This document shows, one piece after another, positions 36,580 to 57,803 of a stretch of 57,803 nucleotides of DNA (position 1 is the first letter of the stretch; each line of letters begins with the position of its first letter). Under the pieces are notes generated by a model, which was given only the letters and a program-made list of their open reading frames with translations, was not told where the DNA came from and did not search any database. A program made the translations under genes and the position numbers. The DNA comes from a virus. Its lineage: Duplodnaviria > Caudoviricetes. The stretch lies in the IMG/VR virus record IMGVR_UViG_3300037422_000254, positions 1 through 57,803 of that record; one strand, given 5' to 3'.

Positions 36580-36828
36580 TTAGTTCCGCTCCACCACGTT
36601 GTTGTTTGCGATGCGGTCACACCGCTCCAGAACGTCATCAATGATGTTGCACAATAAGGCGATCTTTTTCGCGTCGTCTGCGTTCGCGCCATGCAACGTA
36701 AGGAACTTGGTCGTTTGGATCATCGCGATAGCGAACGTCGCTTGGATTTCCCGGCGGTTCATGGACGGAATGTCCTCGCCGCATTCAAACAAGTCGTTCA
36801 TCGTGTCGAACACGCTACTTCCCATCAA
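36580..36828 (-). CDS. Hypothetical protein
   Basis: Overlap with recombinase stop; AGGAG RBS. Confidence 0.55.
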   Translation of the reverse strand: MMGSSVFDTMNDLFECGEDIPSMNRREIQATFAIAMIQTTKFLTLHGANADDAKKIALLCNIIDDVLERCDRIANNNVVERN

Positions 36829-37736
36829 TTACCGCTCCTTTTGAACCACGTTTTCCATTCGTATAATCCAGGTGGCAACGCCACTGTTTGGTCGCGGTTT
36901 TCGTAACTCGTTGCGTTCTCGGTCACTGGCTCAGCGTAGCCGATTATTTCAGGGCGCATCTTCTGGCCGTGGACGGCCGTGTACACAAGGTTCACGTACC
37001 ACTTATCGATGTAGTGGTGCTGAACCCAGCTTTTCTCTCGGGCTGACAAATAGCTTGCCTTTCGCTTGTACCGCAGCGCAAACATGGTTTCGGTGTTCAA
37101 CTTATTCGCGATCTCAGAATAGGTTTTCCCTTCCTTGTGTTCCCTTCTGATCCGGTCGATAATCCTCCCCATGTATTCATCACGAACCACCACCAACTTC
37201 TTGCTGTTCTGGAATTCCTTAAACATGTAACCAAGGGGGGCGCGAGTAATGGTCCTTGGCGGCAACTTGCCGCCGTTCTGTTCTCGTAATCTGTTGTTGT
37301 GCTGCCTTCTTCGCTCGCCCCGGATTCCGCTCTCGAATTCGGCGAAGCTCATCATCGTGGTGAGTAGCAGCTTGCCCACACAAGAAGAAGTGTCTACGAA
37401 TCCTCCTCCCATGTGGCAGATAACCAATCTAATCTCTCGTTCGTCCCACTCTCGCATACAGGCGATTCCGTCGGCGGTGTTTCGGAAGAGCCTGTCGAGG
37501 GTGGCGGCGACGACGATGTCTCCGTCCTTGAGACTGAGCGACAGCTTTCGCCCCTCGCTTCGGTCGGCCAGTCGCTTAGTGTAGGCGCTCTCTCCGATGT
37601 CTCTGTACCATTCGGCTCGCGAGATGTTGATTTGCCGGTACTTTGCAAACTCGCGGATGGCGTTTTCTTGGTTCTCCGGGCTGTGACCAGAGATTGCTTG
37701 CTCGTCTCGGCTGCATCGGAGATAAATCTTAGTCGT
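36825..37736 (-). CDS. Serine recombinase (resolvase domain plus recombinase-type C-terminal domain); start uncertain
   Basis: IYLRCS (catalytic S), DIGESA, LDRLFRN, FAEFES..ER, APLGY, YSEIANKLN. Confidence 0.88.
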   Translation of the reverse strand, partial: TTKIYLRCSRDEQAISGHSPENQENAIREFAKYRQINISRAEWYRDIGESAYTKRLADRSEGRKLSLSLKDGDIVVAATLDRLFRNTADGIACMREWDEREIRLVICHMGGGFVDTSSCVGKLLLTTMMSFAEFESGIRGERRRQHNNRLREQNGGKLPPRTITRAPLGYMFKEFQNSKKLVVVRDEYMGRIIDRIRREHKEGKTYSEIANKLNTETMFALRYKRKASYLSAREKSWVQHHYIDKWYVNLVYTAVHGQKMRPEIIGYAEPVTENATSYENRDQTVALPPGLYEWKTWFKRSGN

Positions 37737-38146
37737 TGGCTCGGCTCCTGGCCTTGCCGCTCGGCGTCGTGTACCATGCCTCTTAGCTGGCATACTCTCC
37801 ACCATGCTTCTGGCTCCTCCATCTTGTAGTTTTCTGGCGGCTCCTTGCCAGGGGGCCAACCGTACAAATCAAAATGCAATCTCATTCGCCACCACATGGT
37901 AACGGTGGCCCATTTTGCCTGCTCCTTTTTGGATGACCTAAGAATCGCGCCATCGTGCAGTAGCACAACGAAAATGAATTGCTTGCGGCGTTTGTACCGC
38001 GACAGCACAAACTCTTCCGAGTAGTCCCTGACCCACTCGGATATTCCAACGAGAATCTTTGTCCCCTTGACCTTTGGCAGTCTTTGCGCTTTGTGTTTCT
38101 CGCAGATTGCCTTTCGTCTTGTTTTGCTTATTGGCGTCCCTGACAT
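37394..38146 (-). CDS. Hypothetical protein whose frame runs ~340 nt into the recombinase (ancestral stop probably at 37733)
   Basis: ORF track; see finding on the ACGA junction. Confidence 0.5.
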   Translation of the reverse strand: MSGTPISKTRRKAICEKHKAQRLPKVKGTKILVGISEWVRDYSEEFVLSRYKRRKQFIFVVLLHDGAILRSSKKEQAKWATVTMWWRMRLHFDLYGWPPGKEPPENYKMEEPEAWWRVCQLRGMVHDAERQGQEPSQRLRFISDAAETSKQSLVTARRTKKTPSASLQSTGKSTSREPNGTETSERAPTLSDWPTEARGESCRSVSRTETSSSPPPSTGSSETPPTESPVCESGTNERLDWLSATWEEDS

Positions 38147-38876: not shown

Positions 38877-38904
38877 ATTGTACCTGTGGTGGCGGTCAAG
38901 TCAA
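38877..38904 (-). promoter_or_regulatory. sigma70-type promoter for recombinase operon
   Basis: TTGACT-N16-TACAAT, same boxes and spacing as at 698-725. Confidence 0.65.
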
Positions 38905-39048
38905 GGGATAGGTTTCAGTCACGGCTTTTACTCCTGGGCGCCTTGCCGGGCGCCAATGGTTCCGGCTTGTGTTCGCCCCATCGCGCCGCCGGGTCGCGAT
39001 GGGTGTTCGGCGCCCCTTGCCGCGACGCGCGGCATCGCTTCCCGCTTT

Positions 39049-39645
39049 TCATTGCTGACTCTCGATCAATTCCACTAGCTTATCCGCGAACCGCGACCAC
39101 ACCGCCGCCCGCGCCGCCTCCGCCCGCGCCGCCTCTGTCAGCGACGGCCACACCGCCGCCTCCGCCAACGCCTCCACCGCATTCGCCGCATTCGCCTCCG
39201 TATCCGCCTCCGCCTCCGCCTCCGCCCGCGCCAGCGCCCGCGCCGCCGCCTCCGCCGCCTCCGACGCCGCTGCCGCCGCCGCTGCCTCCGCCTTCGCCGC
39301 CGCGGATGATCTGGCCTCGGCCACGACGAACTGCAAAAACGGTTTTTTGATGCCCTTCAAGTCCTGGCCTACCGCGATCGCGGACAGAAACCGTTCCGGC
39401 CATCGCTTGGCCTGATCGAGGGGCATTCCCTCGAAGATCCGATCTTCGAGGAGCGCTAGCCAGCGCGGGATACCCAGTTCTGTTTCGTATTTTCTGTGGT
39501 CCCATCCGTGGATCGTGCAACCGACCGCGCACCCGCGGCCGCCTTCCCAATAAATCCCCTTGACAATCTTGTCCGCCGCCGCGTGAGCGCGGACGCGGGA
39601 AAGGTACTTGGCCTTGATCGCCTTTTTCCCATGGAACGCTTTCAT
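39049..39645 (-). CDS. Ala-rich array paralogue P1 (198 aa)
   Basis: MKAFHGKK..GCAVGC..WPERFL..Ala tract..FADKLVELI. Confidence 0.85.
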   Translation of the reverse strand: MKAFHGKKAIKAKYLSRVRAHAAADKIVKGIYWEGGRGCAVGCTIHGWDHRKYETELGIPRWLALLEDRIFEGMPLDQAKRWPERFLSAIAVGQDLKGIKKPFLQFVVAEARSSAAAKAEAAAAAAASEAAEAAARALARAEAEAEADTEANAANAVEALAEAAVWPSLTEAARAEAARAAVWSRFADKLVELIESQQ

Positions 39646-40352
39646 AATTTTTGCTCCTCCTTCGTGTTGGCCGCCTCCTCGATCAGCGCGATGAGCGTCT
39701 CCGCGAAGTGCGAATAAGCCTCCGCCCGCGCCGCCTCCGCCCGCGCCACCAACGCCGCCTCTGCCTGTGGCGTCTCCACTCGCGCCGCCGACCACGCCAC
39801 CGCCCGCGCCTTCGCCGCCGCCGCCGACCACGCCGCCGCGTCCGCCGCCGCCAACGCATCCGCCGCCACCGCCGCCGCGGCCGTTCGCGCCACCTCCTGA
39901 AGCGCCGCGGCCTCCGCCTGCGCCGCCGACGCCTTTACCTGCGCGGCCGTCGATGCCTTCGCCGCCGCTTGCGCCGCAGCCTCCGCCCGCGCCTCCGCCG
40001 CCCGCGCCGCCGACGATCTGGCATCGGCCACGACGAACGCCAGAAACGGCGCCTTCACGGCTTCAAGGTCCTGGCCTACCGCGATCGCGGAGAGGAACCG
40101 CTCAGGCCAGAGTTTGGCTTCCTCGAGGGGCAACCCCTCGAAGATCTGATCTTCGATGACCGCTAACCACCGCGGAATACCTAGCTCCGCTTCGTATTTT
40201 CCATAGTCCGATCCGTGAACGGTGCAACCGACTGCGCACCCGCGGCCGTCCTGCCAGTAGAACCCCTTTTCAATCTCGTCTGCCGCTGCGTGGGCGCGAA
40301 CGCGATCAAGGTAGAGCGACTTGATTGCCGCGTCATCGTGGAACGCTTTCAT
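39642..40352 (-). CDS. Ala-rich array paralogue P2 (236 aa)
   Basis: MKAFHDD..; ATGA coupling. Confidence 0.85.
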   Translation of the reverse strand: MKAFHDDAAIKSLYLDRVRAHAAADEIEKGFYWQDGRGCAVGCTVHGSDYGKYEAELGIPRWLAVIEDQIFEGLPLEEAKLWPERFLSAIAVGQDLEAVKAPFLAFVVADARSSAARAAEARAEAAAQAAAKASTAAQVKASAAQAEAAALQEVARTAAAAVAADALAAADAAAWSAAAAKARAVAWSAARVETPQAEAALVARAEAARAEAYSHFAETLIALIEEAANTKEEQKL

Positions 40353-41071
40353 GATTTTTGCTCCTCCTTTGTGTTGCCCGCCTGTTCAATCAATTCAATT
40401 AGCTTATCCGCGAAGTATGAATAAGCCTCCGCTTGCGCCGCCTCTGCCAGCGATGGCCACACCGCCGCCTCCGCCAACGCCTCCACCGCATTCGCCGCAT
40501 TCGCCTCCGTATCCGCCTCCGCCTCCGCCTCCGCCCGCGCCAGCGCCCGCGCCGCCGTCGCCGCCGACCACGTCGCCGCCTCCGCCGCCCGCGCCGCCGC
40601 CAACGCCGCCGACGCCGCCTCCCACGCCGCCGATTCCGACGCCGCCGCCTCCGCCGCCTCCGACGCCGCTTCCGTTGCAGTCAACGCCTCCGTTAACGCC
40701 GATGTTGCCCGCGCCGTCGCCGACCGCGCCGACTCTTTGGCGTCCGCCACGACGAACGCCAAAAACGGCTTCTTCACCTTTTCCAAATCCTGGCCGACGG
40801 CGATCGCAGCCAGGAACTTCTCAGGCCAGAGCTTGGCCTGATCGAGGGGCATTCCCTCGAAGATCCGATTTTCGAGGAGCGCCAGCCACATTGGGATACC
40901 CAGCTCCGTTTCGTAGGCCGCGTGATCCGATCCGTGGATCGTGCAACCGACTGCGCATCCGCGGCCGCGCTGCCAGTAGAACCCCTTTTCAATCTCATCC
41001 GCCGCCGCATGGGCGCGGATGCGGGAAAGGTACTTGGCCTTGATCGTTTTCTTCCCATGGAACGCTTTCAT
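40349..41071 (-). CDS. Ala-rich array paralogue P3 (240 aa)
   Basis: MKAFHGKK..; ATGA coupling. Confidence 0.85.
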   Translation of the reverse strand: MKAFHGKKTIKAKYLSRIRAHAAADEIEKGFYWQRGRGCAVGCTIHGSDHAAYETELGIPMWLALLENRIFEGMPLDQAKLWPEKFLAAIAVGQDLEKVKKPFLAFVVADAKESARSATARATSALTEALTATEAASEAAEAAASESAAWEAASAALAAARAAEAATWSAATAARALARAEAEAEADTEANAANAVEALAEAAVWPSLAEAAQAEAYSYFADKLIELIEQAGNTKEEQKS

Positions 41072-41742
41072 GATTTTTTCTCCTCCTTCGTGTCTGGCGA
41101 ATTCTCAATCAATGAGATGAGCTTCTCCGCGAACCGCGCCCATGCCGCCTCCCACGCCGCCGGCCACGCCGCCCGCGCCTCCCACGTCGCCAGCGCCGCG
41201 GCCGCCCGCGGCGCCGCCCGTCCCGCCGCCGCCGCCGCTTCCGCCGCCTCCCACACCGCGTCCGCCGCCCGCGCCGCCGCATCCGCCTCCGCCGCCGCCC
41301 GCGCCGCCCACGCCGCCGCCTTTGCCGCCGCCGTCCGCGCCGCCGCCCGCGCCGTCGTCCGCGCCGCCGTCGATGCTGCCCGCGCCTCCGCCAACCGCGC
41401 CGACTCTTTGGCGTCCGCGACGACGAACGCCAAAAACGGCTTCTTGATGGCCTCCAAATCCTGGCCTACCGCGATCGCGGACAGAAACCGTTCCGGCCAT
41501 CGCTTGGCTTTCCCCATGGGCAACGCCTCGAAGATCCAATCTTCGAGGAGCGCTAACCACACTGGAATCCCGAGCTCCGTTTCGTAGGCCGCGTGGTCAT
41601 CACCGTGAACGGTGCAACCGACTGCGCACCCGCGGCCGCGCTGCCAGTAGAACCCTTTTTGAATTTCGTCCGCCGCCGCATGGGCGCGGATGCGGGAAAG
41701 GTACTTGGCCTTGATCGTTTTCTTCCCATGGAACGCTTTCAT
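41068..41742 (-). CDS. Ala-rich array paralogue P4 (224 aa)
   Basis: ATG 41742 after AAGGAG. Confidence 0.85.
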   Translation of the reverse strand: MKAFHGKKTIKAKYLSRIRAHAAADEIQKGFYWQRGRGCAVGCTVHGDDHAAYETELGIPVWLALLEDWIFEALPMGKAKRWPERFLSAIAVGQDLEAIKKPFLAFVVADAKESARLAEARAASTAARTTARAAARTAAAKAAAWAARAAAEADAAARAADAVWEAAEAAAAAGRAAPRAAAALATWEARAAWPAAWEAAWARFAEKLISLIENSPDTKEEKKS

Positions 41743-41910
41743 GATTTTCTCCTTCCTTTTTTTTTGTGCCGGCGATGCGGGCCGGCCCACCGATCAGCGG
41801 GTTTCAGTTTCCGCCGACTCTCTTAATTCGAAAAAAAAGATCCGGGCGTTTGATTTTTTTTCGAAAATTTTTCGAAACCACCGATGCCGGTGCCGGCGCC
41901 GCCGCCAAAT
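41743..41910 (-). repeat. Array spacer cassette A
   Basis: TTCGAA palindromes, TCAAAC-N16-TCGAAT, hairpin with AAACTGAAAC loop, GCCGGC hairpin, RBS. Confidence 0.85.
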
Positions 41911-42666
41911 TTACCCGGCGTTACCGCCTAACTCGATCAGCGCGATTAGCTTGTCCGCGAATTTCATCCATGATGCTTCGCGCGCCTCCGTGCGCGCCAC
42001 AGCCACCGCCTCGGCCATCGCCTGGGCCACCGCCGAAGCCATAGCCTCGGCCATAACCTTCCGCGCCGTCCACTCCAACGCCTCCGCGGCCTCCTCCGCG
42101 GCGGCCAACGCCGTCCGCGCCACCGCATCCGACACCGTCCACGCCGCCGAATCCGGCATCATCCACGCCTCCCACGCCGCCTCCTCCGCCGCCGCCCGCG
42201 CCGCCGATTCCGACGCTGCCGCCTCCGCCGCCGTCGCATCCGACGCCGTCCACGCCGTCCACGCCGCCTCCGCCGCCCGCGCCGCCTGCGACGTGGCCCA
42301 CTCCGTCCACGCCGCCTCCGTCGCCCGCGCCGATTCTTTGACGTCCGCCACGACGAACTGGAGAAACGGTTTTTTGATGCCCTTCAAGTCCTGCCCCACC
42401 TCGATGGCCGACAGGAACCGCTCAGGCCATCGCTTGGCCTGATCGAGGGGCATTCCCTCGAAGAGGCGATCTTCGAGACACCCGAGCCATGCCGGGATAC
42501 CCAGCACGGTCTCGTAGGTCGTGTATTGCGGGCACTCCCGGCCCGCACCAATCGCTGTCGATAGACCCAGACCCAGCCTCTCCCCCTCCTCCGCCGCCGC
42601 CGCGTAGCGGCGGAGCCAGTCAAGGTATCTCGCCTTGATTGCCGTGTTGTTATGAAATGCGCGCAT
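41911..42666 (-). CDS. Ala-rich array paralogue P5 (251 aa; divergent N-domain)
   Basis: MRAFHNN..; lacks GCAVGC. Confidence 0.85.
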   Translation of the reverse strand: MRAFHNNTAIKARYLDWLRRYAAAAEEGERLGLGLSTAIGAGRECPQYTTYETVLGIPAWLGCLEDRLFEGMPLDQAKRWPERFLSAIEVGQDLKGIKKPFLQFVVADVKESARATEAAWTEWATSQAARAAEAAWTAWTASDATAAEAAASESAARAAAEEAAWEAWMMPDSAAWTVSDAVARTALAAAEEAAEALEWTARKVMAEAMASAVAQAMAEAVAVARTEAREASWMKFADKLIALIELGGNAG

Positions 42667-42829
42667 TTGTCCTTCTCCTTTTTTGGCCGACGACGGCCGG
42701 CTCGCCGATCGGCGGGTTTCAGTTTCCGCCAACGCTTTTGATTCGAAAAAAAGATCCGTGGCGTTTGAAATCTTTTTCGAAAATTTTTCGAAACCACCGA
42801 TGCCGGCGCCGGCGATTCCGCCGCCAAAT
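42667..42829 (-). repeat. Array spacer cassette B
   Basis: Same element as A. Confidence 0.85.
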
Positions 42830-43651
42830 TTACCCGGCGTTACCGCCTAACTTGATCAGGGCGATTAGCTTGTCCGCGAACCGCGACCATGCTGCCTCCC
42901 ACGCCGCCCGCCCCGCGGCCGCCCGCGCCTCCCACGCCGCCGCCCACGCCGCCCGTCCCGCGGCCGCCGCCGCCGCCGCTGTTCGCGCCGCCGACCACGC
43001 CGCCGCATCCGCCGCCCGCGCCTCCCACGCCGCCGCCCACGCCGCCCGTCCCGCCGCCTCCGCCGCCGCCGCCGCCGCGGCCGCCTGCGCCGCCGCATCC
43101 GCCGCCACCTCCGCCAACGCCTCCGCCGCATCCGCCTCCGCCGCCGCCCGCGCCACCGCCACCGCATCCGCCCGCGCCGCCGCATCCTCCGCCACCTCCG
43201 CCGCCACCTCCGCCAACGCCTCCGCCGCATCCGCCTCCGCCGCCGCCCGCGCCACCGCCACCGCATCCGCCCGCGCCGCCGTCGATGCTGCTCGCGCCGC
43301 CGACCGCGCCGACTCTTTGGCGTCCGCGACGACGAGCGCCAAAAAGGGCGCCTTGATTTTGTCCAAGTCCTGGCCGACGGCGATCGCGGACAGAAACCGC
43401 TCGGGCCATCGCTTGGCCTGATCGAGGGGCATTCCCTCGAAGATCCGATCTTCGAGCAGCGCCAGCCACGCTGGGATACCTAGCTCCGTTTCGTAGGCCG
43501 CGTGGTCATCACCGTGAACGGTGCAACCGACCGCGCACCCGCGGCCAGCTTCCCAGTAGAACCCCTTTTCAATCTCATCCGCCGCCGCATGGGCGCGGAT
43601 GCGGGAAAGGTACTTGGCCTTGATCGTTTTCTTCCCATGGAACGCTTTCAT
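42830..43651 (-). CDS. Ala-rich array paralogue P6 (273 aa)
   Basis: Internal duplications ARADAVAVARAAAEADAAEALAEVAA x2 and GRAAWAAAWEARAA x2. Confidence 0.85.
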   Translation of the reverse strand: MKAFHGKKTIKAKYLSRIRAHAAADEIEKGFYWEAGRGCAVGCTVHGDDHAAYETELGIPAWLALLEDRIFEGMPLDQAKRWPERFLSAIAVGQDLDKIKAPFLALVVADAKESARSAARAASTAARADAVAVARAAAEADAAEALAEVAAEVAEDAAARADAVAVARAAAEADAAEALAEVAADAAAQAAAAAAAAEAAGRAAWAAAWEARAADAAAWSAARTAAAAAAAGRAAWAAAWEARAAAGRAAWEAAWSRFADKLIALIKLGGNAG

Positions 43652-44415
43652 GATTGCTTCTCCTTCGTGATCAGCGCAATTAGCCTTTCCGCGAATCTCA
43701 TCCATGATGCTTCGCGCGCCTCCGTGCGCGCCACAGCCACCGCCTCGGCCATCGCCTCGGCCATCGCCTCGGCCATGGCCTCCCGCGCCGCCTCCCGCGC
43801 CTGGGCCACCGCCGAAGCCATAGCCTCGGCCATAACCTTCCGCGCCGTCCACTCCAACGCCTCCGCGGCCTCCTCCGCGGCGGCCAACGCCGTCCGCGCC
43901 ACCGCATCCGACACCGTCCACGCCGCCGAATCCGGCATCATCCACGCCTCCCACGCCGCCTCCTCCGCCGCCGCCCGCGCCGCCGATTCCGACGCTGCCG
44001 CCTCCGCCGCCGTCGCCGCCCGCGCCGCCTGCGACGTGGCCCACTCCGTCCACGCCGCCTCCGTCGCCCGCGCCGATTCTTTGACGTCCGCCACGACGAA
44101 CTGGAGAAACGGTTTTTTGATGCCCTTCAAGTCCTGCCCCACCTCGATGGCCGACAGGAACCGCTCAGGCCATCGCTTGGCTTCCTCGATGGGCAGGCCC
44201 TCGAAGATCTGATCTTCGAGGAGCGCCAGCCACATTGGGATACCCAGCTCCGTTTCGTAGGCCGCGTGATCCGATCCGTGGATCGTGCAACCGACCGCGT
44301 TCCCGCGACCGCGCTGCCAGTAGAACCCTTTTTGAATTTCGTCCGCCGCCGCATGGGCGCGGATGCGGGAAAGGTACTTGGCCTTGATCGTTTTCTTCCC
44401 ATGGAACGCTTTCAT
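43648..44415 (-). CDS. Ala-rich array paralogue P7 (255 aa)
   Basis: GNAVGC variant; Ala tract near-identical to P5. Confidence 0.85.
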   Translation of the reverse strand: MKAFHGKKTIKAKYLSRIRAHAAADEIQKGFYWQRGRGNAVGCTIHGSDHAAYETELGIPMWLALLEDQIFEGLPIEEAKRWPERFLSAIEVGQDLKGIKKPFLQFVVADVKESARATEAAWTEWATSQAARAATAAEAAASESAARAAAEEAAWEAWMMPDSAAWTVSDAVARTALAAAEEAAEALEWTARKVMAEAMASAVAQAREAAREAMAEAMAEAMAEAVAVARTEAREASWMRFAERLIALITKEKQS

Positions 44416-44596
44416 GATTTTCTCCTTCCTTTTTTTTTGTGCCGGCGATGCGGGCCGGCCCACCGATCAGCGAGTTTCAGTTTCCGCCAACGCTTTTGAT
44501 TCGAAAAAAAGATCCGTGGCGTTTGAAATCTTTTTCGAAAATTTTTCGAAACCACCGATGCCGGCGCCGGCGATTCCGCCGGCACCGCCGCCAAAT
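44416..44596 (-). repeat. Array spacer cassette C
   Basis: Full element including GCCGGCG-GAAT-CGCCGGC hairpin. Confidence 0.85.
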
Positions 44597-45259
44597 TTAC
44601 CCGGCGTTGCCGCCTAACTCGATCAGGGCGATTAGCTTCTCCGCGAACCGCGACCACACCGCCGCCCGCGACACCGACCATGCCTCCGCCGTCGCCGCCG
44701 TCGACCACGCCGCCGCCCGCGCCGCCGACCATGTTGCCTCTGCCTCCTCCGCCGCCGCTGCCCGCGCCGCCTCCGCCGCAAACCACGCCGCCGCCTCCGC
44801 CGTCCGCGCCGCCGACCACGCCGCCCCCTCCGCCGTCCGCGCCGCCCCCATCACGTCCGCCTCCGCCCGCGCCGCCGCATCCTCCAGCACCTCCGCCCGC
44901 GCCTCCGCCGCCCGCGCCGATTCTTCGGAGTCCGAGACGGCGAACGCCAGAAACGGAGCCTTCACGGCTTCCAAGTCCTGGCCGACGGTGATCGCCGCCA
45001 GGAACCGCTCGGGCCATCGCTTGGCTTCCTCGAGGGGCAACCCCGCGAAGATCCTATCTTCGAGGAGCGCCAGCCACATTGGGATACCCATCTCCGTTTC
45101 GTAGGCCGCGTGATCCGATCCGTGGATCGTGCAACCGACCGCGTTCCCGCGGCCGCGCTGCCAGTAGAACCCTTTTTGAATTTCGTCCGCCGCCGCATGG
45201 GCGCGAACGCGATCAAGGTATCTCGACTTGATTGCCGCGTTGTTATGAAATGCGAGCAT
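44597..45259 (-). CDS. Ala-rich array paralogue P8 (220 aa)
   Basis: MLAFHNN..GNAVGC. Confidence 0.85.
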   Translation of the reverse strand: MLAFHNNAAIKSRYLDRVRAHAAADEIQKGFYWQRGRGNAVGCTIHGSDHAAYETEMGIPMWLALLEDRIFAGLPLEEAKRWPERFLAAITVGQDLEAVKAPFLAFAVSDSEESARAAEARAEVLEDAAARAEADVMGAARTAEGAAWSAARTAEAAAWFAAEAARAAAAEEAEATWSAARAAAWSTAATAEAWSVSRAAVWSRFAEKLIALIELGGNAG

Positions 45260-45429
45260 TTGCTTTTCCTTCCTCTTTTTGTTGTGCCGGCGACGGCCGG
45301 CCCACCGATCGGCGGGTTTCAGTTTTCGCCAACGCTTTTGATTCGAAAAAAAAGATCCGTGGCGTTTGAAATCTTTTTCGAAACCACCGATGCCGGCGCC
45401 GTCCGATACCGCCGGCGCCGCCGCCAAAT
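45260..45429 (-). repeat. Array spacer cassette D
   Basis: Same element; box spacing +1. Confidence 0.85.
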
Positions 45430-46248
45430 TTACCCGGCGTTACCGCCTAACTTGATCAGGGCGATTAGCTTGTCCGCGAAGCGCGACCACGTCGGCGACC
45501 ACGCATGCACCCATGCCGCATCCATCCGCGCCCACGACCGCGCCTCCTCCGCCGCCGCCTGCGCCGCCGCCGCCGCCTGCGTTGCCGCCTTCGTTGCCGC
45601 CGCCGCATCCGCCGCCGACCACGCCGCCGCATCCGCCGCCGCCGCCGCCGTCGTTCGCGCCGCCGCCTGAAGCGCCGCCGCCGCCGCCTGAAGCGCCGCC
45701 GCCGCCGCCCGCGCCGACCACGCCGCCGCATCCGCCGCCGCCGCCTCCGCCGCCGCCCGCGCCGCAAACCACGCCGCCGCCTCCGCCGCCACCTCCGCCG
45801 CCGCCCGCGCCGCCCACGCCGCCGCCTTTGCCGCCGCCGCCCGCGCCGCCGCCCGTGCCACCGTCCGCGCCGCCGTCGATGCTGCCCGCGCCTCCGCCAA
45901 CCGCGCCGACTCTTTGGCGTCCGCGACGACGAACGCCAGAAACGGCGCCTTCACGGCTTCAAGGTCCTGGCCGACGGTGATCGCCGCCAGGAACTTCTCA
46001 GGCCATCGCTTGGCTTCCTCGATGGGCAGGCCCTCGAAGATCTTATCTTCGAGAAGCGCTAACCACGCTGGGATACCTAGCTCCGTTTCGTAGGCCGCGT
46101 GATCCGATCCGTGGATCGTGCAACCGATTGCGCACCCGCGGTCAGCTTCCCAGTAGATCCCCTTGACAATCTCGTCCGCCGCCGCATGGGCGCGGACGCG
46201 GGAAAGGTACTTGGCCTTGATCGTTTTCTTCCCATGGAACGCTTTCAT
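45430..46248 (-). CDS. Ala-rich array paralogue P9 (272 aa)
   Basis: MKAFHGKK..GCAIGC. Confidence 0.85.
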   Translation of the reverse strand: MKAFHGKKTIKAKYLSRVRAHAAADEIVKGIYWEADRGCAIGCTIHGSDHAAYETELGIPAWLALLEDKIFEGLPIEEAKRWPEKFLAAITVGQDLEAVKAPFLAFVVADAKESARLAEARAASTAARTVARAAARAAAAKAAAWAARAAAEVAAEAAAWFAARAAAEAAAADAAAWSARAAAAALQAAAAALQAAARTTAAAAADAAAWSAADAAAATKAATQAAAAAQAAAEEARSWARMDAAWVHAWSPTWSRFADKLIALIKLGGNAG

Positions 46249-46997
46249 GATTGCTTCTCCTTCGTGTTGCCCGCCTGTTCAATCAATTCAATTAGCTTAT
46301 CCGCGAAGTATGAATAAGCCTCCGCTTGCGCCGCCTCTGCCAGCGACGGCCACACCGCCGCCTCCGCCAACGCCTCCACCGCATTCGCCGCATTCGCCTC
46401 CGTATCCGCCTCCGCCTCCGCCCGCGCCGCCGTCGCCGCCGACCACGCCGCCGCCCGCGCCGCCGACCACGCCGCCGCATCCGCCGCCTGCGCCGCCGCC
46501 GCCCGCGCCGCCCGCGCCGCCCACGCCGCCGCCCGCGCCGCCGCCTTTGCCTCCGCCGCCCGCGCCGCCGTCCGCGCCGCCGCCTTCGTTGCCGCCTTCG
46601 TTGCCGCCGCCGCCTCCGCCAACGCCGATGTTGCTCGCGCCGCCGCCGTCGCCGCGGATGATCTGGCCTCGGCCACGACGAACTGCAAAAACGGTTTTTT
46701 GATGCCCTTCAAGTCCTGACCTACCGTTATCGCGGACAGAAACCGTTCAGGCCATCGCTTGGCTTCCTCGATGGGCAGGCCCTCGAAGATCTTATCTTCG
46801 AGGAGCGCCAGCCACATTGGGATACCCAGCTCCGTTTCGTAGGCCGCGTGGTCATCACCGTGAACGGTGCAACCGACTGCGCACCCGCGGCCAGCTTCCC
46901 AGTAGAACCCCTTTTGAATCTCATCCGCCGCCGCATGGGCGCGGATGCGATCAAGGTAGAACGACTTGATTGCCGCGTTGTTATGAAATGCTCGCAT
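46245..46997 (-). CDS. Ala-rich array paralogue P10 (250 aa)
   Basis: MRAFHNN..GCAVGC. Confidence 0.85.
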   Translation of the reverse strand: MRAFHNNAAIKSFYLDRIRAHAAADEIQKGFYWEAGRGCAVGCTVHGDDHAAYETELGIPMWLALLEDKIFEGLPIEEAKRWPERFLSAITVGQDLKGIKKPFLQFVVAEARSSAATAAARATSALAEAAAATKAATKAAARTAARAAEAKAAARAAAWAARAARAAAAQAADAAAWSAARAAAWSAATAARAEAEADTEANAANAVEALAEAAVWPSLAEAAQAEAYSYFADKLIELIEQAGNTKEKQS

Positions 46998-47200
46998 TTG
47001 TCCTTCTCCTTTTTTGGCCGACGACGGCCGGCTCGCCGATCAGCGGTTTTCAGTTTCCGCCGACGCTTTTGATTCGAAAAAAAGATCCGTGGCGTTTGAA
47101 ATCTTTTTCGAAACCACCGATGCCGGCGCCGGCGATTCCGCCAATACCGGCGCGCCACCGATGCCGGCGCCGGCGATTCCGCCGGCGCCGCCACCAAATT
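46998..47200 (-). repeat. Array spacer cassette E (hairpin part duplicated)
   Basis: CCACCGATGCCGGCGCCGGCGATTCCGCC occurs twice. Confidence 0.85.
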
Positions 47201-48134
47201 TGATCAGGGCGATTAGCGTCTCGGCGAACCTAGACCACACCCACGCCTCCACCTCCGCCAACGCGGCTTTTGCTGCATCCGCCCGCGCCGCCGCCGCCTC
47301 CGCCACCGCACGCGCCGCTTCCGCCTCCGCTTCTGCCTCCGCCGCCCACCGCGCCGACGACCACGCATCCGCCGCCGCCAACGCCGCCGCCGCACGCGCC
47401 TCCCGCGCCTCCTCCGCCGCCTCCGCCGCCGCCGACCGCGCCGCCGCTGCCTCCCACGCCGCCACCGTCTCCGCCTCCTCAGCCGCCGCCGCCGCCGCCG
47501 CCGCGGCCGTTCGCGCCGCCGACCGCCATGTGGCTGCCTCCGTCGCCGCCGACACCGCCGCCGCCGCCTGCGCCTCCGCCGCCTCCGCCGCCTCCGCCGC
47601 CTCCGCCAACAATACCACAGTCGCGGCGGCCGCGGCGGCTCGCGCCGCCCACGTCACCGCCAACGCATCTGCCGGCGCCGGCGCCCGCGCCGCCGCCCGC
47701 GACGAATAGGCGGCCGCTGCCTCCGCATCCGCCGCCGCCTCCGCCGCTTGAAGCGACGCCCACGTCGGGGCCGCCCGCGCCTCCGCCGCCCGCGCCCACT
47801 CTTTGGCGTAGGCGACGACGATATGCAAAAACAGGGTCTGGACCTTGTCGAGGTCCTGACCTACCGAAATGCTGGCCAACAACCTTGTTGGCCATCGCTT
47901 GGCCGCTTCGGGGGGCAACCCCGCGAAGATCCAATCTTCGAGGAGCGCCAGCCATGTGGGCAGACCGATCTGCCCGTACTCTTCGTAATCCAATCCATGG
48001 ACCGTGTAACCGGTCGCGTTCCCGCGACCGTCGGTCCAGTAAAATCCATTTTCGAGACCGCCAGCCGCTGCTACGCGGCGAACGCGGCGGAGGATTTTGT
48101 CTTTGACAGCTACGGAGCCGTGAAACGCGCGCAT
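47040..48134 (-). CDS. Ala-rich array paralogue P11 (stop lost; reads through cassette E)
   Basis: MRAFHGS..GNATGY..FAETLIALIK then spacer-derived tail. Confidence 0.8.
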   Translation of the reverse strand: MRAFHGSVAVKDKILRRVRRVAAAGGLENGFYWTDGRGNATGYTVHGLDYEEYGQIGLPTWLALLEDWIFAGLPPEAAKRWPTRLLASISVGQDLDKVQTLFLHIVVAYAKEWARAAEARAAPTWASLQAAEAAADAEAAAAYSSRAAARAPAPADALAVTWAARAAAAAATVVLLAEAAEAAEAAEAQAAAAVSAATEAATWRSAARTAAAAAAAAAEEAETVAAWEAAAARSAAAEAAEEAREARAAAALAAADAWSSARWAAEAEAEAEAARAVAEAAAARADAAKAALAEVEAWVWSRFAETLIALIKFGGGAGGIAGAGIGGAPVLAESPAPASVVSKKISNATDLFFESKASAETENR

Positions 48135-48285
48135 TTGTCCTTCTCCTTTTTTGGCCGACGACGGCCGGCTCGCCGATCGGCGGGTTTCAGTTTTCGCCGA
48201 CTCTCTTAATTCGAAAAAAAAGATCCGGGCGTTTGAAATCTTTTTCGAAACCACCGATGCCGGCGCCGGCGATTCCGCCGGCACC
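48135..48285 (-). repeat. Array spacer cassette F
   Basis: Same element. Confidence 0.85.
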
Positions 48286-48358
48286 GCCTCCGCTTCCCAC
48301 GGCGACGCCCACGCCCACGCATCCGCCACCGCTTCCGCCCGCGCCGCCGCTTCCGCTA
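48282..48358 (-). pseudogene. Remnant of an Ala-rich tract
   Basis: Translates VAEAAARAEAVADAWAWASPWEAEAV with no N-domain. Confidence 0.5.
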
Positions 48359-48634
48359 CGAGTTTTCCTCCAAGGTTTTGTGCCTCTCGCGGCGCTGCGC
48401 GATGTACGTTTGGGCGGCCATCCAGCCGCGAACGTAAGCGCAGGCGACTTCGTCTACGGTCCGGTTGCGTGGTAGCTTGCCGACCGGGCATAACGGGGAC
48501 AGGAAGGTCCTTGCACAGTGTTGGCGCATCCGTTCATGCCAACCCTGGGCGAAGGCGATTTGTGCTGGATTGGCCAGCCCAACGTATTTCTTACGCTTGG
48601 CCCGATACAGAATGTTGCCACCGTAGACTTTCAT
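48356..48634 (-). CDS. Unrelated basic hypothetical protein inside the array
   Basis: MKVYGGNILYRAKRKK..; GGGGAG RBS. Confidence 0.55.
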   Translation of the reverse strand: MKVYGGNILYRAKRKKYVGLANPAQIAFAQGWHERMRQHCARTFLSPLCPVGKLPRNRTVDEVACAYVRGWMAAQTYIAQRRERHKTLEENS

Positions 48635-48720
48635 TTTCACTCTCCCTATTCCGCCAAGTTTTTGTGTCCCCTCCACCCATTGGCGGGATGGGTGGAAGAG
48701 GGTTCCTTCGTCTTATTGTC

Positions 48721-49467
48721 TTATTGGGCCGCCTCTTCAATCAGCGCGATGAGCTTGGCCGCTAATCGCGTAATCGCGGTGTCGAAGGTGCAGACGCCCG
48801 AATGGGCGGCCGCCCAGGCCGCCGAATTGGCCGCCTCCTGCGGTGCCCTTTGGCCAGCCCGTTCTGCTTCCAACATAGCCAACCAACGATCGCCCATTTG
48901 GGCAATCGGCGCCCGCTGGTGCGCGTCCGCGGGCGGCGCCTTTGCTTCCGCCTCCACCACCTCCTGCACGTACTCCGCGCACCGTGTCGCCGATGACATC
49001 GCTAACGCATTCGTTGCCTTTGCCTCCGCAACCTCCGCCGATTCTTTGGCGAAGGTCGCGGCGAACGCGAGAAACGGAGCCTTCACGGCTTCCAAGTCCT
49101 GGCCGACGGTGATCGCCGTCAGCAATCGAGCCGGCCAAGAGATGTCCTCCGTCCCCTCGAAAATCCAGTTTTCGAGCCCCCCGAGCCAACGGGGTATCCC
49201 GAGCCTACGTTCGTAGGCAACGAACGCTTCCCCCCCGAGGGAAAGCCCGACTTCTGTGAGCAAACCCTCCCATCTCCCAGCCCCACGGTATTGTGGAGGA
49301 TTTGGCGTCCATGCCATCTCCTCCAACCCTAATTCCTGGCCGGCTTTGACGGCCTCACGTACATCCTGCACGTACTCCGCATGCGCCACCGCCGCTAAGG
49401 CGGCTGATTTACGAACGCGGGAAAGATACCGCGCCTTGAGCTTTTTACTACCGTGAAACGCTTTCAT
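48721..49467 (-). CDS. Array paralogue P12 (248 aa; most divergent)
   Basis: MKAFHGSKK..LGIPRWL..WPARLL..QDLEAVKAPFL..AAKLIALI. Confidence 0.85.
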   Translation of the reverse strand: MKAFHGSKKLKARYLSRVRKSAALAAVAHAEYVQDVREAVKAGQELGLEEMAWTPNPPQYRGAGRWEGLLTEVGLSLGGEAFVAYERRLGIPRWLGGLENWIFEGTEDISWPARLLTAITVGQDLEAVKAPFLAFAATFAKESAEVAEAKATNALAMSSATRCAEYVQEVVEAEAKAPPADAHQRAPIAQMGDRWLAMLEAERAGQRAPQEAANSAAWAAAHSGVCTFDTAITRLAAKLIALIEEAAQ

Positions 49468-49602
49468 GATTTTCTCCTTCCTCTCTTTGTTTTGGCCGGC
49501 GACGGCCGGCCCACCGATCAGCGGGTTTCAGTTTCCGCCGACGCTTTTGATTCGAAAAAGATAGCCGTGGCGTTTGATTTTTTTTCGAAAATTTTTCGAA
49601 AC
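49468..49602 (-). repeat. Array spacer cassette G (first in transcription order)
   Basis: Same element; its GC hairpin lies ~200 bp further upstream (49797-49830). Confidence 0.85.
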
Positions 49603-49876
49603 AGGCTTTTTACCGTCGGCGAGCCGTCCGATACCGCCGGCGAAGGGGGGGGGGATTAGTGGTGCAGCGCCGCCGACAAAGAAGAACTATAAGCGAAAGG
49701 AAACGGATAACGGAAACAACCAAAAACGGCCAATCACGACCAACGAAAGAAACGCAATCCGCTATGCAGCGCCCCAAGAACGCCACAAGGCAGGACGCGC
49801 CGCCGGCGATTCCGCCGGCACCGCCGCCAAAGTATCGGAAACCGAACGCCAGCGCGCCGCCAGCGAGCCGCCGGCG

Positions 49877-49909
49877 AGCCGTCTGCAAGCCGTCTGCAAG
49901 CCGTCTGCA
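49877..49909. repeat. Three perfect tandem 11-bp repeats
   Basis: AGCCGTCTGCA x3. Confidence 0.85.
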
Positions 49910-49915
49910 GTCACC

Positions 49916-49943
49916 AAAATAGTGTACAAATGTACACTATTTT
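49916..49943. promoter_or_regulatory. Perfect 13-2-13 inverted repeat (operator or recombination site)
   Basis: AAAATAGTGTACA-AA-TGTACACTATTTT. Confidence 0.7.
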
Positions 49944-50050
49944 TTGGCCGCCGCTACTGCCGTTTTTTGCGTAACCTTTTGCGCTGCAAGCGTTTGTGTC
50001 GTTCGGAACGGTGTTGGGTGCCGGGCACCCCGTCCTTGCTGGTGTACGGT

Positions 50051-50110
50051 GCAGGAGTGGTGTGCGGGGCAGGAGTGGCGTGGTGCAGCGGCAGGAGTGG
50101 CGTGGTGCAG
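50051..50110. repeat. Three GCAGGAGTGG direct repeats
   Basis: At 50051, 50069 and 50091; the last two extend as CGTGGTGCAG. Confidence 0.75.
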
Positions 50111-50633
50111 GTGCAGTGCGGCCGGCCATCGCACGCGATCTGCCGGGATTGCGTACGATCGGCCGGGGGGGTACTGGCCCGTCCTGGTCCGGCCCAATAT
50201 CTATCTTCCCCTCCCGGAATTTTTGAGCCAAAAACGATTTTTGCTACCCAGCCGCAGATTTTCCAAAATCTCCAAGTGTGTCATTTTGACACACTTTTAG
50301 CGCGCCCGGTTTGTGCGCCCGTGCGCACACGGGAGCAAAACCGGGAGCGCGGAAGTTTACTGACGACTCAATGCGCCCGCTTTCTGCACCTCTCTTTAGG
50401 AGTGCAGAAAGCGGGCGCATGGTCGATCGTAAACGAATTTTGCGGGGGTATTTGAATTTTTCGTCAATATCGGTTTTTCACGAATGCGCAGTCGGGAGCG
50501 CGCATAACAGTATAATTGCGCCTCCGCTTTGCTTTGCGCAATCGGGAGCGCTAGAGATTTTACAAAATCTTGGTGAAGTCCACAAACCCATCGTGTCTTT
50601 GCCGTCGCGTCTGCGTGGCGGTATGATTGGTTC

Positions 50634-51110
50634 ATGGGCGGTGGCGGAAACGAATCTGGTGGTGGCGACAACAATCAGGATAGCCTAGTATCCTTGGCTT
50701 GCCGCGTTGAGGCTGACAATCAGTCTTGTTGCGAAGCGACCAGCGGTTTTCTTGGCCGACAATTATCACGGACGGGAATGTCTTTGGGCGAGATCGTGAT
50801 TCCTGAGTGTGACACGACTTGGATTACGGCCTTGAGTGCCCTTGGTGCGATAGAGTTGTTGGAGGATGGTTGGGATGGTGCTGGGTCACTGGCTCCTTCC
50901 GGCCGGGTCGTTGACCATGCGGAGTGGTTTCTGTTAAAGGCCAAGCTTGCTGGGAGCGATCCGCCGGTGCGAGCAGTTGCTGGGCATGAGGGGACGGTGG
51001 TCTTTGAGTGGCGAGATCACGGGATGTATGTCAAGGTTGAGATTTGGGGCGCCGAAGAGGGCGAGCACACGATTATGGGAATGGGGGCCAATCCAGATTA
51101 TCGTCCTTAG
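50634..51110 (+). CDS. Hypothetical protein (lone + strand gene; start uncertain)
   Basis: LEDGWDGAGS..PS..GTVVFEW pattern; TATAAT at 50511. Confidence 0.55.
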   Translation: MGGGGNESGGGDNNQDSLVSLACRVEADNQSCCEATSGFLGRQLSRTGMSLGEIVIPECDTTWITALSALGAIELLEDGWDGAGSLAPSGRVVDHAEWFLLKAKLAGSDPPVRAVAGHEGTVVFEWRDHGMYVKVEIWGAEEGEHTIMGMGANPDYRP

Positions 51111-51196
51111 TTTAGTGGTGCGATGACGGCGTTCTTGTGGAGTGCGAGATTTGGTGGGAGGACAAGGTTGTTTGGACCAAGAAGCGGGTGAAGCCG

Positions 51197-53149
51197 TTAT
51201 TGAAGTGATTGGTTTTTCGCCTTGATCTTCAGCATGATGTTTGCGGCGCGAGCGCCACCCACGCCGTACTTTTCGCGGATTTTGCGCCAGGTGGCTTCCT
51301 GGCCCGCCATTTCTTCGGCAATTTCGTCGTCGGTTAGTTCCCGATCGGCCTTGTTGGGGGTGTACGCCTTCTGGCCGGCAATTCGCGTTGGCCAAATTAG
51401 GCCCTTTGCGACAGCGGCGGAAATGAGGCGGCGGATTTTGGTGACGGGGATGCCGTCGCGAAGGGCGATCTCGGTGGATTCGGAAACCGATCGGGCTTCG
51501 TCGAAATACCTTTCGGCGAACTCCTCGGTGGTGATCCCCGCGATTCGTTCGGCGTCTCGGCCTTGGCGACCATGGCGCCCCTTGGGAGCCTTGAGGTCGT
51601 TTGGGTCGAGGTTTTCGTTGGCCATCCAGAGCGGATAGACCCAACAGAGAACTTGTTTTTCGGGGGTTCGCCATGACCTGCAGGCGGCTTCAACGGTGAC
51701 GCAACCTTCCTCGGCGTGCCGGCGGAATATGACATGAGTATCGCAAGCGCGGGACATGGACCCGCCGCCAGACCCAATGTCGGTGATCTCCTTGTTGGAC
51801 TGGTCCCCTTTGGTGGAGTGGTGAACAATCGTGAACGCAGCGCCAGTGAGTTTTGCGAGTCGGTCGATCTGGTTGTACATGTTGGAAATGTCGGCGTTGG
51901 AATTCTCGTCATCCCCTTTGGCGACGAACCGATAGAAGGCGTCAAGGACCACCAAGTCGAGTTCGTCTTTGGCGTAAGCGGCGATCCAATTTTCGATGCC
52001 TTCCAGGTCGCACAGTTCGCCGCGCAGCGACAGGATGGAGAGCCGATCGCCCAAATCATCAGCGGTGATTCCTCTGGCCTCCATAACCCTCCTGAGTCGG
52101 TCTGTGAAGGTTTCTGGATGAAGCTCGTTGTCGATGACGAGAACACGGCCGGGTGGTGTCTCGTAGCCCAACCATCCTTTTCCGGTCGCGATCGATAGCG
52201 ACAGGTCGACGACCAGAAACGATTTACCGACCTTTGATGGCGCGATGATGTTCATCGTTTCTGTTTTTCGGAGGAGGCCGACCCCGGCGTCGTTCCCGAT
52301 TACCGGTGGTAACAGGCTCGGATAATCGGCGAGGTATTGCGTCGCAAGGGGAGCCTTTTGGTGGTAGCCGTTTGATTCGATTGTTGGCTCGGCCTCCTTC
52401 AGGATTTCGGCCGTAACCTCTGGCGCGGCGTCCACCAGGGCAATCAGCGAGTCCGGCGACCCATCGGCGTCAAACCAATCCGAAATGTCGCCCTTTGGCG
52501 GAACTCCTGGCAGGTCGATGATTTTACAGCACGCGGCGATCCCGCTGACGGCGAGGGCAATTCCCTTCGCATGTTTGCGGCCTGGGTCGTCATTGTCGGG
52601 GACGATAACGACAAACTTGTCGCGAAAGTAGTCGTTGTATTCCGGCTTCCACTTTCCCGCTCCGCCGACGTTACAGGTCGCGTTAAACCCATGAGCGATT
52701 AGCCGGTCGGCGTCCTTCTCGCCTTCGACCACGAACACCATTGATCGTGCCGGCGATGCGACCAATTCCGGTAAGTGGTAGAGAACCCGCCGCGCGTTGG
52801 TCATGTTTTGTATCCAGCCGCCGCTACCGTCCGGCCGGCGCTGGAAAAACTTCTTAGGCTCGGTCCTTACTGATTGGTATATCAGTTTGCCGTTTTCGTC
52901 GCGGTAGTCGTATGTGGCGACGATCCGCCTTCCTTGTGACGGTTTTTGCTCGCCGCCGAACAGCCCGATGGCGTCGGCCAAGGCTCGGAAGTCGCACCCG
53001 GCGAAGCATTTAAAGAGGACGTGTCCGCCGCTTTGGGTAATTTGGAGAGAGGCTTTATCGTCTTCGTGGCACGGGCATTTAGCCATCCATCGGTTTTTGC
53101 CGCTCGGTTTGCCTCCCAGTTGGGCGACAATCTCCTCAGCGGTTTTCAT
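51197..53149 (-). CDS. DNA primase-helicase (Zn finger, TOPRIM, AAA_25/RepA helicase)
   Basis: CPCH..CFAGC, VVEGEKDAD, PDND, APSKVGKS, VVLD, IVHH. Confidence 0.92.
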   Translation of the reverse strand: MKTAEEIVAQLGGKPSGKNRWMAKCPCHEDDKASLQITQSGGHVLFKCFAGCDFRALADAIGLFGGEQKPSQGRRIVATYDYRDENGKLIYQSVRTEPKKFFQRRPDGSGGWIQNMTNARRVLYHLPELVASPARSMVFVVEGEKDADRLIAHGFNATCNVGGAGKWKPEYNDYFRDKFVVIVPDNDDPGRKHAKGIALAVSGIAACCKIIDLPGVPPKGDISDWFDADGSPDSLIALVDAAPEVTAEILKEAEPTIESNGYHQKAPLATQYLADYPSLLPPVIGNDAGVGLLRKTETMNIIAPSKVGKSFLVVDLSLSIATGKGWLGYETPPGRVLVIDNELHPETFTDRLRRVMEARGITADDLGDRLSILSLRGELCDLEGIENWIAAYAKDELDLVVLDAFYRFVAKGDDENSNADISNMYNQIDRLAKLTGAAFTIVHHSTKGDQSNKEITDIGSGGGSMSRACDTHVIFRRHAEEGCVTVEAACRSWRTPEKQVLCWVYPLWMANENLDPNDLKAPKGRHGRQGRDAERIAGITTEEFAERYFDEARSVSESTEIALRDGIPVTKIRRLISAAVAKGLIWPTRIAGQKAYTPNKADRELTDDEIAEEMAGQEATWRKIREKYGVGGARAANIMLKIKAKNQSLQ

Positions 53150-54012: not shown

Positions 54013-54276
54013 TCATTGCAATTCATAGCTATCTCCGCAAACATGGATTTTTGGCGGCGCCTCATCTTCGGTTAAGCGGCTTACGGAGAATCGTAGTATT
54101 TGGGCGATTTCGATTAAATCTGTGGACGAAATGGCCCGCTTTCCGACCTCCCAGTTATGGATACTGTTCCGGTGAACACCAATCAGGTCGGCCAATACCG
54201 ATTGCGACATATGCGATGCTTTTCGCCATTGCCGAATTTTACAACCAATCTGTGCGTGCAATGACTTTTTCACCAT
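54013..54276 (-). CDS. XRE-family HTH regulator
   Basis: IGCKIRQWRKASHMSQSVLADLIGVHRNSIHNWEVGKR. Confidence 0.85.
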   Translation of the reverse strand: MVKKSLHAQIGCKIRQWRKASHMSQSVLADLIGVHRNSIHNWEVGKRAISSTDLIEIAQILRFSVSRLTEDEAPPKIHVCGDSYELQ

Positions 54277-57410: not shown

Positions 57411-57803
57411 TTATCCACCGCCCTCCTCCCTTGCCGCCTGTTCAATCAACTCGATCAGCTTCTCCGCGAACCGCGCCCATGCCGCCTCCCACGCCGCCCG
57501 CCCCGCGGCCGCCCGCGCCTCCCGCGCCTCCCACGCCGCCGCCGCCGCCTGCGCCGCCGCCGCCGCCGCCGCCGCCGTTCGCGCCGCCGCCTGAAGCGCC
57601 GCCGCCGACCACGCCGCCGCATCCGCCGCCGCCTTTGCCGCCGCCGCCCGCGCCGCCGCCACCGCCGCCGCCACCGCATCCGCCCGCGCCGCCGCGGCCG
57701 TTCGCGCCGCCGCCGCCGAGCGCGCCGACTCTTTGGCATCGGCCACGACGAACGCCAGAAACGGCGCCTTCACGGCTTCAAGGTCCTGGCCTACCGCGAT
57801 CGC
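57411..57803 (-). CDS. Ala-rich paralogue P13 (5' end outside window)
   Basis: AIAVGQDLEAVKAPFLAFVVADAKES..FAEKLIELIEQA. Confidence 0.85.
   Translation of the reverse strand, partial: AIAVGQDLEAVKAPFLAFVVADAKESARSAAAARTAAAARADAVAAAVAAARAAAAKAAADAAAWSAAALQAAARTAAAAAAAAQAAAAAWEAREARAAAGRAAWEAAWARFAEKLIELIEQAAREEGGG

Follow-up and report, generated by a model that had tools for sequence, protein, structure and literature searches.

A freshwater phage (Duplodnaviria; Caudoviricetes), represented by IMG/VR virus record IMGVR_UViG_3300037422_000254, carries 12 intact, diverged copies of one unnamed gene in a tandem array on its minus strand (positions 39049–49467), and a further, partial copy near the end of the record. 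The record is linear, and we analysed its whole length of 57803 bp (hereafter the window), for which CheckV estimates a completeness of 63%. The 13 copies take up almost one fifth of the known genome. We are very confident that they represent a real, selected, in situ expansion of an unnamed family. As the best explanation of the findings as a whole we favour, with moderate confidence, an old, lineage-specific tandem expansion to at least 13 copies, combined with an early, host-directed accessory role for the encoded proteins.

A first-pass annotation of the window had described 12 co-oriented genes that share a head domain, an Ala tract and a closing FAxKLIxLI motif. A scan for M[KRL]AFH starts confirmed exactly 12 intact genes, and the consensus motifs proposed then match the alignment consensus. 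All copies consist of a head of about 114 amino acids (aa), an Ala-rich tail and a C-terminal KLIxLI helix, which near the C-terminus of each protein reads F/Y-A-x-K-L-I-x-L-I. The 12 proteins are 198–364 aa long, and their heads align with a mean column identity of 63% and 28 invariant columns. A profile built from these 12 heads recovered the copies themselves at E 7e-68 to 8e-46 and added paralogue 13 (57411–57803, minus strand; E 2.8e-10), which is separated from the array by 8 kb that include the helicase and primase genes. This copy comprises head residues 89–114, the tail and the C-terminal helix. It is cut by the contig end, so the rest of the genome may hold further copies.

The array genes, all on the minus strand, run from paralogue 12 (48721–49467, 248 aa), which is the first, to paralogue 1 (39049–39645, 198 aa), which is the last. 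As the first-pass annotation had noted, neighbouring copies are either ATGA-coupled or separated by a repeated cassette. Five junctions are 4-nt ATGA overlaps, which couple paralogue 4 (41068–41742, 224 aa from its MKAFH start) to paralogue 3 (40349–41071, 240 aa), paralogue 3 to paralogue 2 (39642–40352, 236 aa), paralogue 2 to paralogue 1, paralogue 7 (43648–44415, 255 aa) to paralogue 6 (42830–43651, 273 aa) and paralogue 10 (46245–46997, 250 aa) to paralogue 9 (45430–46248, 272 aa). The other array genes are paralogues 5 (41911–42666, 251 aa), 8 (44597–45259, 220 aa) and 11 (47040–48134, 364 aa). Four gaps between genes measure 163–181 nt, one measures 42 nt, and one, not foreseen in the earlier description, measures 586 nt and holds an additional open reading frame (ORF).

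The cassette is about 165 nt long and is present in seven copies, confined to the array. Its 31-nt core gave seven matches (≤3 mismatches), all in the array, against none expected from 100 shuffles. On the minus strand, the copies lie upstream of paralogue 4 (41743–41910, 168 nt, with an AT-rich TTCGAA-repeat core followed by a ribosome-binding site), paralogue 5 (42667–42829, 163 nt), paralogue 7 (44416–44596, 181 nt), paralogue 8 (45260–45429, 170 nt), paralogue 10 (46998–47200), paralogue 11 (48135–48284) and paralogue 12 (49468–49660). The stop codon of paralogue 11 is lost, and translation continues through the next cassette (47040–47200), giving the protein a C-terminal extension of about 50 aa that does not belong to the family. 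The cassette upstream of paralogue 10 is thus mostly translated as this extension, and the gap between these two genes is only 42 nt for that reason. A degenerate form of the cassette pattern had no matches in IMG/VR, where the window's own record was possibly excluded, and the window contains no Rfam family and no tRNA.

The copies are old. Among the heads, DNA identity is 74–89% (differences of 11–26%), dS (synonymous divergence) is 0.27–0.96, and the median dN/dS (non-synonymous to synonymous ratio) is 0.26, as calculated for 36 pairs of the nine gap-free heads; genes 5, 11 and 12 were omitted because of indels. Accordion repeats of T4 and T6 are recent, near-identical and unstable. A recent gene accordion was rejected here, as near-identical units are absent: the heads are no closer than the identities given above, and the most similar block anywhere in the array, which lies in the tails, reaches 90.4% identity across 187 nt. 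In a quick maximum-likelihood search (IQ-TREE) with 64 heads, of which 52 came from other loci, the 12 array heads formed one clade with a Shimodaira–Hasegawa-like approximate likelihood ratio test (SH-aLRT) support of 99, and genes 5, 11 and 12 were on long branches within it. A single clade of 12 indicates that the expansion took place in the phage's own lineage, from one ancestral copy. The array would have grown by unequal recombination between gene-plus-cassette units.

Could the array be an assembly artefact, or a chimera in which variants from different strains were strung together? The region is GC-rich and repetitive, and the Logan contigs of one DNA run break inside it, with many spurious joints. 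Tails also break assemblies elsewhere, as 22 of 82 related viral loci end ≤900 nt after the head. We nevertheless regard an artefact as extremely unlikely. The 12 heads are all distinct, the three junction types follow a consistent logic, and every frame is intact and under purifying selection. In the same Logan contigs, unique array pieces have a depth of 66–75 and one piece has 127, compared to 59–65 in the flanks; the unique pieces are not at a fraction of flank depth, and the depths fit single-copy stoichiometry for each distinct copy. The collapse of coverage to one to three copies that the first-pass annotation had warned of was not seen in these depths.

The scale of this expansion, which had been called unusual for a phage, is not matched in any of the related loci examined. 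Using the head profile, as the first-pass annotation had proposed, we counted copies within ±10 kb of each match. A single copy was present in 127 of 136 related loci, two in 8 and three in 1, and none had more than three. The 82 viral loci contributed 75 with one copy, 6 with two and 1 with three, and the 54 genome loci contributed 52 with one, 2 with two and none with three. Four whole viral records had one copy each, and 4 of 401 sampled Pseudomonadota genomes had a match. As there are at most three copies elsewhere, and mostly one, 13 is an extreme outlier. The locus with three copies is L071, and those with two are L038, L015, L017, L019, L024, L058, L115 and L133; the contigs of L071 and L038 end inside a copy. 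The 22 viral loci that end shortly after the head (within L009–L091, IMG/VR) show that assemblies are frequently interrupted in the tail, and counts elsewhere may thus be too low. These breaks in the Ala-repeat tail also hint at repeat-number heterogeneity in populations.

The genes around the relatives do not form a fixed set. The commonest real neighbour cluster was present at 8 of 135 loci, and no neighbour gene was conserved. Neighbouring families included AAA_24 ATPases, RecT, YqaJ, VRR-NUC, SNF2/ResIII helicases and DNA methylases. With no fixed neighbour and with replication and recombination genes as its surroundings, the gene is best described as a stand-alone accessory gene of the early replication/recombination module.

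The family is very large and mostly phage-borne, and it has neither a family-library match nor a source name. Scans of the paralogues against Pfam, NCBIfam and PHROGs returned only sub-threshold low-complexity noise, PADLOC-DB gave no families at E ≤ 0.01 for the four paralogues scanned, and no relevant Pfam model matched among 125 family members. A word-indexed search matched 193 proteins, and the source names among the 120 listed were all 'hypothetical protein'. In an exhaustive profile search, 2962 cluster representatives matched at E ≤ 1e-3 and 1820 at E ≤ 1e-10, and in IMG/VR 494 of 534 candidate stretches encode a relative. In a reciprocal check, diverse members matched the head profile at E 1e-25 to 4e-49. 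The Atlas clusters nearest to paralogue 3 are 67–95% viral. The three-part plan was common to all 18 homologues that were read, and the best 150 profile matches are 142–348 aa long. When 52 heads from other loci were aligned, 50 were 46–68% identical to those of the window, and the two most distant, which include the phiXaf18 head, were 32% and 40% identical.

Relatives are also found at 55 loci in metagenome-assembled genomes labelled as at least 10 phyla (Acidobacteriota, Bacteroidota, Planctomycetota, Pseudomonadota, Chloroflexota, Bdellovibrionota, Gemmatimonadota, Myxococcota, Cyanobacteria, Verrucomicrobiota and others). A first scan of genome contigs with window-only patterns had given no matches, and a scan of metagenomes yielded 11 loci, none of them a sister array. 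No fused forms were found among proteins of 421–2000 aa, which is weak evidence. Literature searches on Imm5-like/PF21805 proteins, phage paralogue arrays and anti-defence, which covered material other than supplementary files, returned nothing on the family. The proposal that the array is an undescribed system holds in that no Pfam, NCBIfam, PHROGs or PADLOC match exists for it; it does not hold in the sense of a multi-component system, as this is one expanded gene family.

Relatives from cultured phages are in 13 Xanthomonas phage records, each with a single copy of 29–32% identity. The gp37 protein of phiXaf18 (QFR59591.1, 'hypothetical protein') and its homologues in KPhi1, MYK3, NEB7 and XapPhi1-6 belong to the same family. 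Like the window copies, they have a head with a Cys-x3-Cys loop and a (L/I)P.WL..L.D..FEGLP block, followed by repeats of the Ala-Ala-x-x type, and in phiXaf18 the gene immediately follows a gene for a VirE-family primase in the early region. Unlike the window, each phage has one copy, with the head identity given above, far more regular repeats and no cassette.

An alignment of 53 diverse heads identified Asp25, Gly38, Cys39, Gly42, Cys43, Pro60, Phe71 and Gly93 as invariant, and His21, His50, Asp68 and Glu72 as ≥90% conserved. His46 was invariant in an alignment of 18 sequences. The resulting Cys-x3-Cys-x2-His-x3-His pattern suggests a metal or redox site, possibly of the Cys2His2 type. In the array, Cys-x3-Cys is intact in 7 of the 12 copies. 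The full Cys-Cys-His-His motif is intact in paralogue 1, while in paralogue 2 it reads C-C-H-Y. Paralogues 7 and 8 lack Cys39, in each case replaced by Asn, and paralogues 5, 11 and 12 lack both Cys residues. Paralogue 5 additionally lacks both His residues, and paralogue 12, the copy with the most divergent head, has an insertion of about 30 aa.

Structure prediction and fold searching, proposed in the first-pass annotation for all paralogues, were carried out for paralogue 3. Its AlphaFold2 model, made with 125 aligned sequences, had a mean predicted local distance difference test (pLDDT) score of 80.7, and a head-only model had a mean of 89.9. Block means in the full model were 88–97 for most of the head (67 and 84 for residues 31–50), 61–68 for most of the Ala-rich helices, and 88 and 97 for the C-terminal helix (residues 211–230). 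The head is predicted to be mostly helical, the Ala-rich stretch to form long helices and the C-terminal helix to be amphipathic. As the C-terminal helix is modelled as confidently as the head, we infer, from model confidence and not from coordinates, that it folds back against the head, which would leave the Ala-rich part to extend outwards as a variable-length arm. Foldseek gave no match in the PDB at E ≤ 0.001 for the full model or for the head model, and a sequence profile gave no PDB matches at E ≤ 10. In a wide VIA-align search the best hit of the head, the CtsR C-terminal domain (Z 5.0, rmsd (root-mean-square deviation) 2.6, 67 aligned), did not stand out, and the full model gave only generic helix matches, at best Z 6.8 on the tail helices. 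A BFVD search returned one uncharacterised phage protein. Prediction of a two-copy complex of paralogue 3 scored 0.17 (mark 0.42), which is evidence neither for nor against self-association.

The Ala-rich tails of the array vary widely, from 84 aa to the 251 aa of paralogue 11, with 30–55% Ala and a net charge of −13 to +5. They consist throughout of degenerate GCN-based repeats with a period of 6–48 nt. The tail of paralogue 6 contains a perfect 99-nt (33-codon) in-frame tandem duplication (43099–43281), which is the sole 100%-identical repeat of such size in the array. The degenerate repeats together with this perfect duplication argue that slippage and duplication are ongoing, and the tails would change by triplet slippage and in-frame internal duplication. 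In 18 homologues the tails are often strikingly regular, with Ala-Ala-x-x repeats or, in AT-rich phages, Ala-Ala-Tyr. The first-pass annotation had read the variable tract as a specificity repertoire. The analysis lends this reading no particular support: slippage and internal duplication would account for the changes, and the residues that vary among the relatives follow genome composition. A helical arm that is variable in length and composition fits the tail variation at least as well as a specificity repertoire.

What might these proteins do? We tentatively propose, from sequence, that they are early, host-directed accessory factors, acting in takeover or counter-defence. Such a role is suggested by their early-gene setting, the lack of a fixed partner, a head strongly conserved across phages that are linked to many host phyla, and a fast-changing arm. 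The paralogues would have diversified in both the length (84–251 aa) and the charge (−13 to +5) of the arm, with five copies also altered at the head site. Most likely, the seven cassettes are promoter and ribosome-binding-site units, which lack a sigma-70 consensus match and would define up to seven transcription units. A more elaborate form of this idea is a diversity system that is independent of reverse transcriptase, in which the head would bind one universal host protein, slippage and duplication would reshuffle the arm, and 13 expressed variants would be a standing repertoire against host defences; we consider this unlikely. The array proteins resemble the variable proteins of diversity-generating retroelements in having a constant and a variable part, but their variation comes from changes in repeat number and from duplication among paralogues, and not from targeted substitution in one gene. 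In agreement with the first-pass annotation, a search of the window with the reverse transcriptase model PF00078 gave no matches at E ≤ 1 in this 63% complete record; no dedicated search for template and variable repeats was made, and the repeats that did turn up are those of the paralogues and of triplets.

If all copies did the same job, the array would be an old, frozen gene accordion that serves dosage only, and the differences between tails would be noise from neutral slippage. This is rather doubtful in our view. Purifying selection on the heads is compatible with it, as are the compositional look of the relatives' tail residues and the seven cassettes, which would raise output. There is also a precedent in T4 and T6, for which two reports describe segmental amplification ('accordion') of counter-defence loci (PMC9391042, PMC13096335); as in the window, an early accessory locus of a phage is multiplied in tandem. 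Unlike those accordions, the window copies are old by their dS values, diverged, in no case near-identical and individually under selection. Moreover, five heads are altered at residues that are invariant in 53 diverse members, and three copies are on long branches. It is quite unlikely, too, that the paralogues are antidotes, each against a different host or competitor toxin, as in homogeneous polyimmunity loci. Immunity families can form tandem homogeneous arrays, according to one report (PMC3482391), and the array resembles such loci in being tandem, in consisting of one mostly helical family and in having no adjacent toxin gene. The nearest named Atlas cluster is Imm5_like, with a score of 0.81 that is a lead only, and by Atlas cluster labels Imm5_like (PF21805) and Imm5 (PF14423) are likewise mostly helical and often phage-borne. 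However, the window head is a separate domain that has no Pfam model or profile match. No Imm5 or Imm5_like Pfam match was found in seven paralogues (E ≤ 1) or in 125 members (E ≤ 0.01), and a six-frame search of the window with PF21805 returned nothing at E ≤ 10. In the records or genomes of five relatives, the same model gave no match at the family locus (E ≤ 1) and none over the cut-off, with one weak, unrelated match of E 0.03 elsewhere. The relatives are also mostly single-copy genes in phage replication modules, and are not beside toxin genes.

Thioredoxin is the sole candidate with any lead, a weak one, for a universal host target of the head. The head might dock on host thioredoxin or be reduced by it, and might thereby recruit or sequester it, which we judge very unlikely. 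The Cys-x3-Cys motif is invariant in the 53 diverse heads, and a universal target would fit the finding that the head is conserved in phages associated with many host phyla. Head residues 1–119 align (113–114 residues, TM by query 0.75–0.79) to an unannotated part of two bacterial thioredoxin-domain clusters in the Atlas, whose proteins are 385–418 aa long, but these matches do not reach the level at which the tool names a family. On one Pseudomonadota chromosome (L152:835-3976 (+)), a 935-aa protein combines a head-like N-terminus (E 9e-11) with PD40 and Peptidase_S9 domains, and the stop of a thioredoxin gene lies 1 nt before the start of its gene. Against this, among the 151 genomes of its order the relative was found solely in the query genome, with no match to this query in the other 150; its head lacks the Cys pair, as five array heads lack an intact one. 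A search with this head found one near-identical protein only.

Returning to an old expansion with a host-directed role, several points weigh against it. No RNA data set is listed as containing the array sequence. The copy order rests on one short-read assembly; the sole public run with the sequence may represent the source sample, and its own contigs are interrupted within the array. The putative metal or redox site is deduced from residue conservation, and loss of otherwise invariant residues in five heads could be decay and not new function, though the frames are intact. In the tails of the relatives, the x residues are Tyr and Asn in AT-rich phages and Trp and Arg in GC-rich phages, and tail variation may thus be largely neutral and hold no specificity code. 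No sigma-70-type promoter match was found inside any cassette, and the fold of the cassette RNA was not significant (z = −1.49).

The remaining features of the window are those of a tailed phage. The plus strand encodes a large terminase, a weak portal match and virion/tail proteins, and the minus strand a primase-helicase (51197–53149), a helicase and a Cro/CI-type helix-turn-helix (HTH) protein (54013–54276). A serine recombinase gene (36825–37859, minus strand; Resolvase N-terminal domain, E 1e-22) lies just downstream of the array. From the recombinase and the HTH protein, the phage is probably temperate. The array, itself on the minus strand, is flanked by the primase-helicase and the serine recombinase, which places it on the early/replication side of the genome. 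The interval of about 1.5 kb that separates the array from the primase-helicase gene (49600–51200) is mostly non-coding, with many palindromes and short direct repeats, and may be a regulatory or origin region.

Within the array, the 586-nt gap between paralogues 11 and 12 holds a small unrelated ORF (48356–48676, minus strand, 106 aa) with no family match. After it, in another frame of the same strand, is an Ala/Trp-rich, headless, tail-like remnant (48285–48362), which is probably the relic of a lost copy. Across 38900–49700 the GCN-rich tails lack stops in several frames of both strands, giving rise to long, spurious Pro-, Gly- or Arg-rich ORFs that overlap the real genes. At the left end of the record, an ORF on the minus strand (2–493) runs off the contig; its motifs resemble those of a RusA-type resolvase. 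Circular closure of the record was considered and rejected, as this left-end ORF is unrelated to the array gene family.

The family thus has about 3000 cluster representatives, yet no library match, known fold or study was found for it in the literature searched. Conservation of the head, at 46–68% identity in 50 of 52 other heads, points to a conserved, probably universal target or chemistry. The 13 selected variants that stand side by side in this one phage are a natural experiment, which includes heads that lack the otherwise invariant Cys pair, and with the single-copy members of cultured Xanthomonas phages, the function of the family can be tested at the bench.

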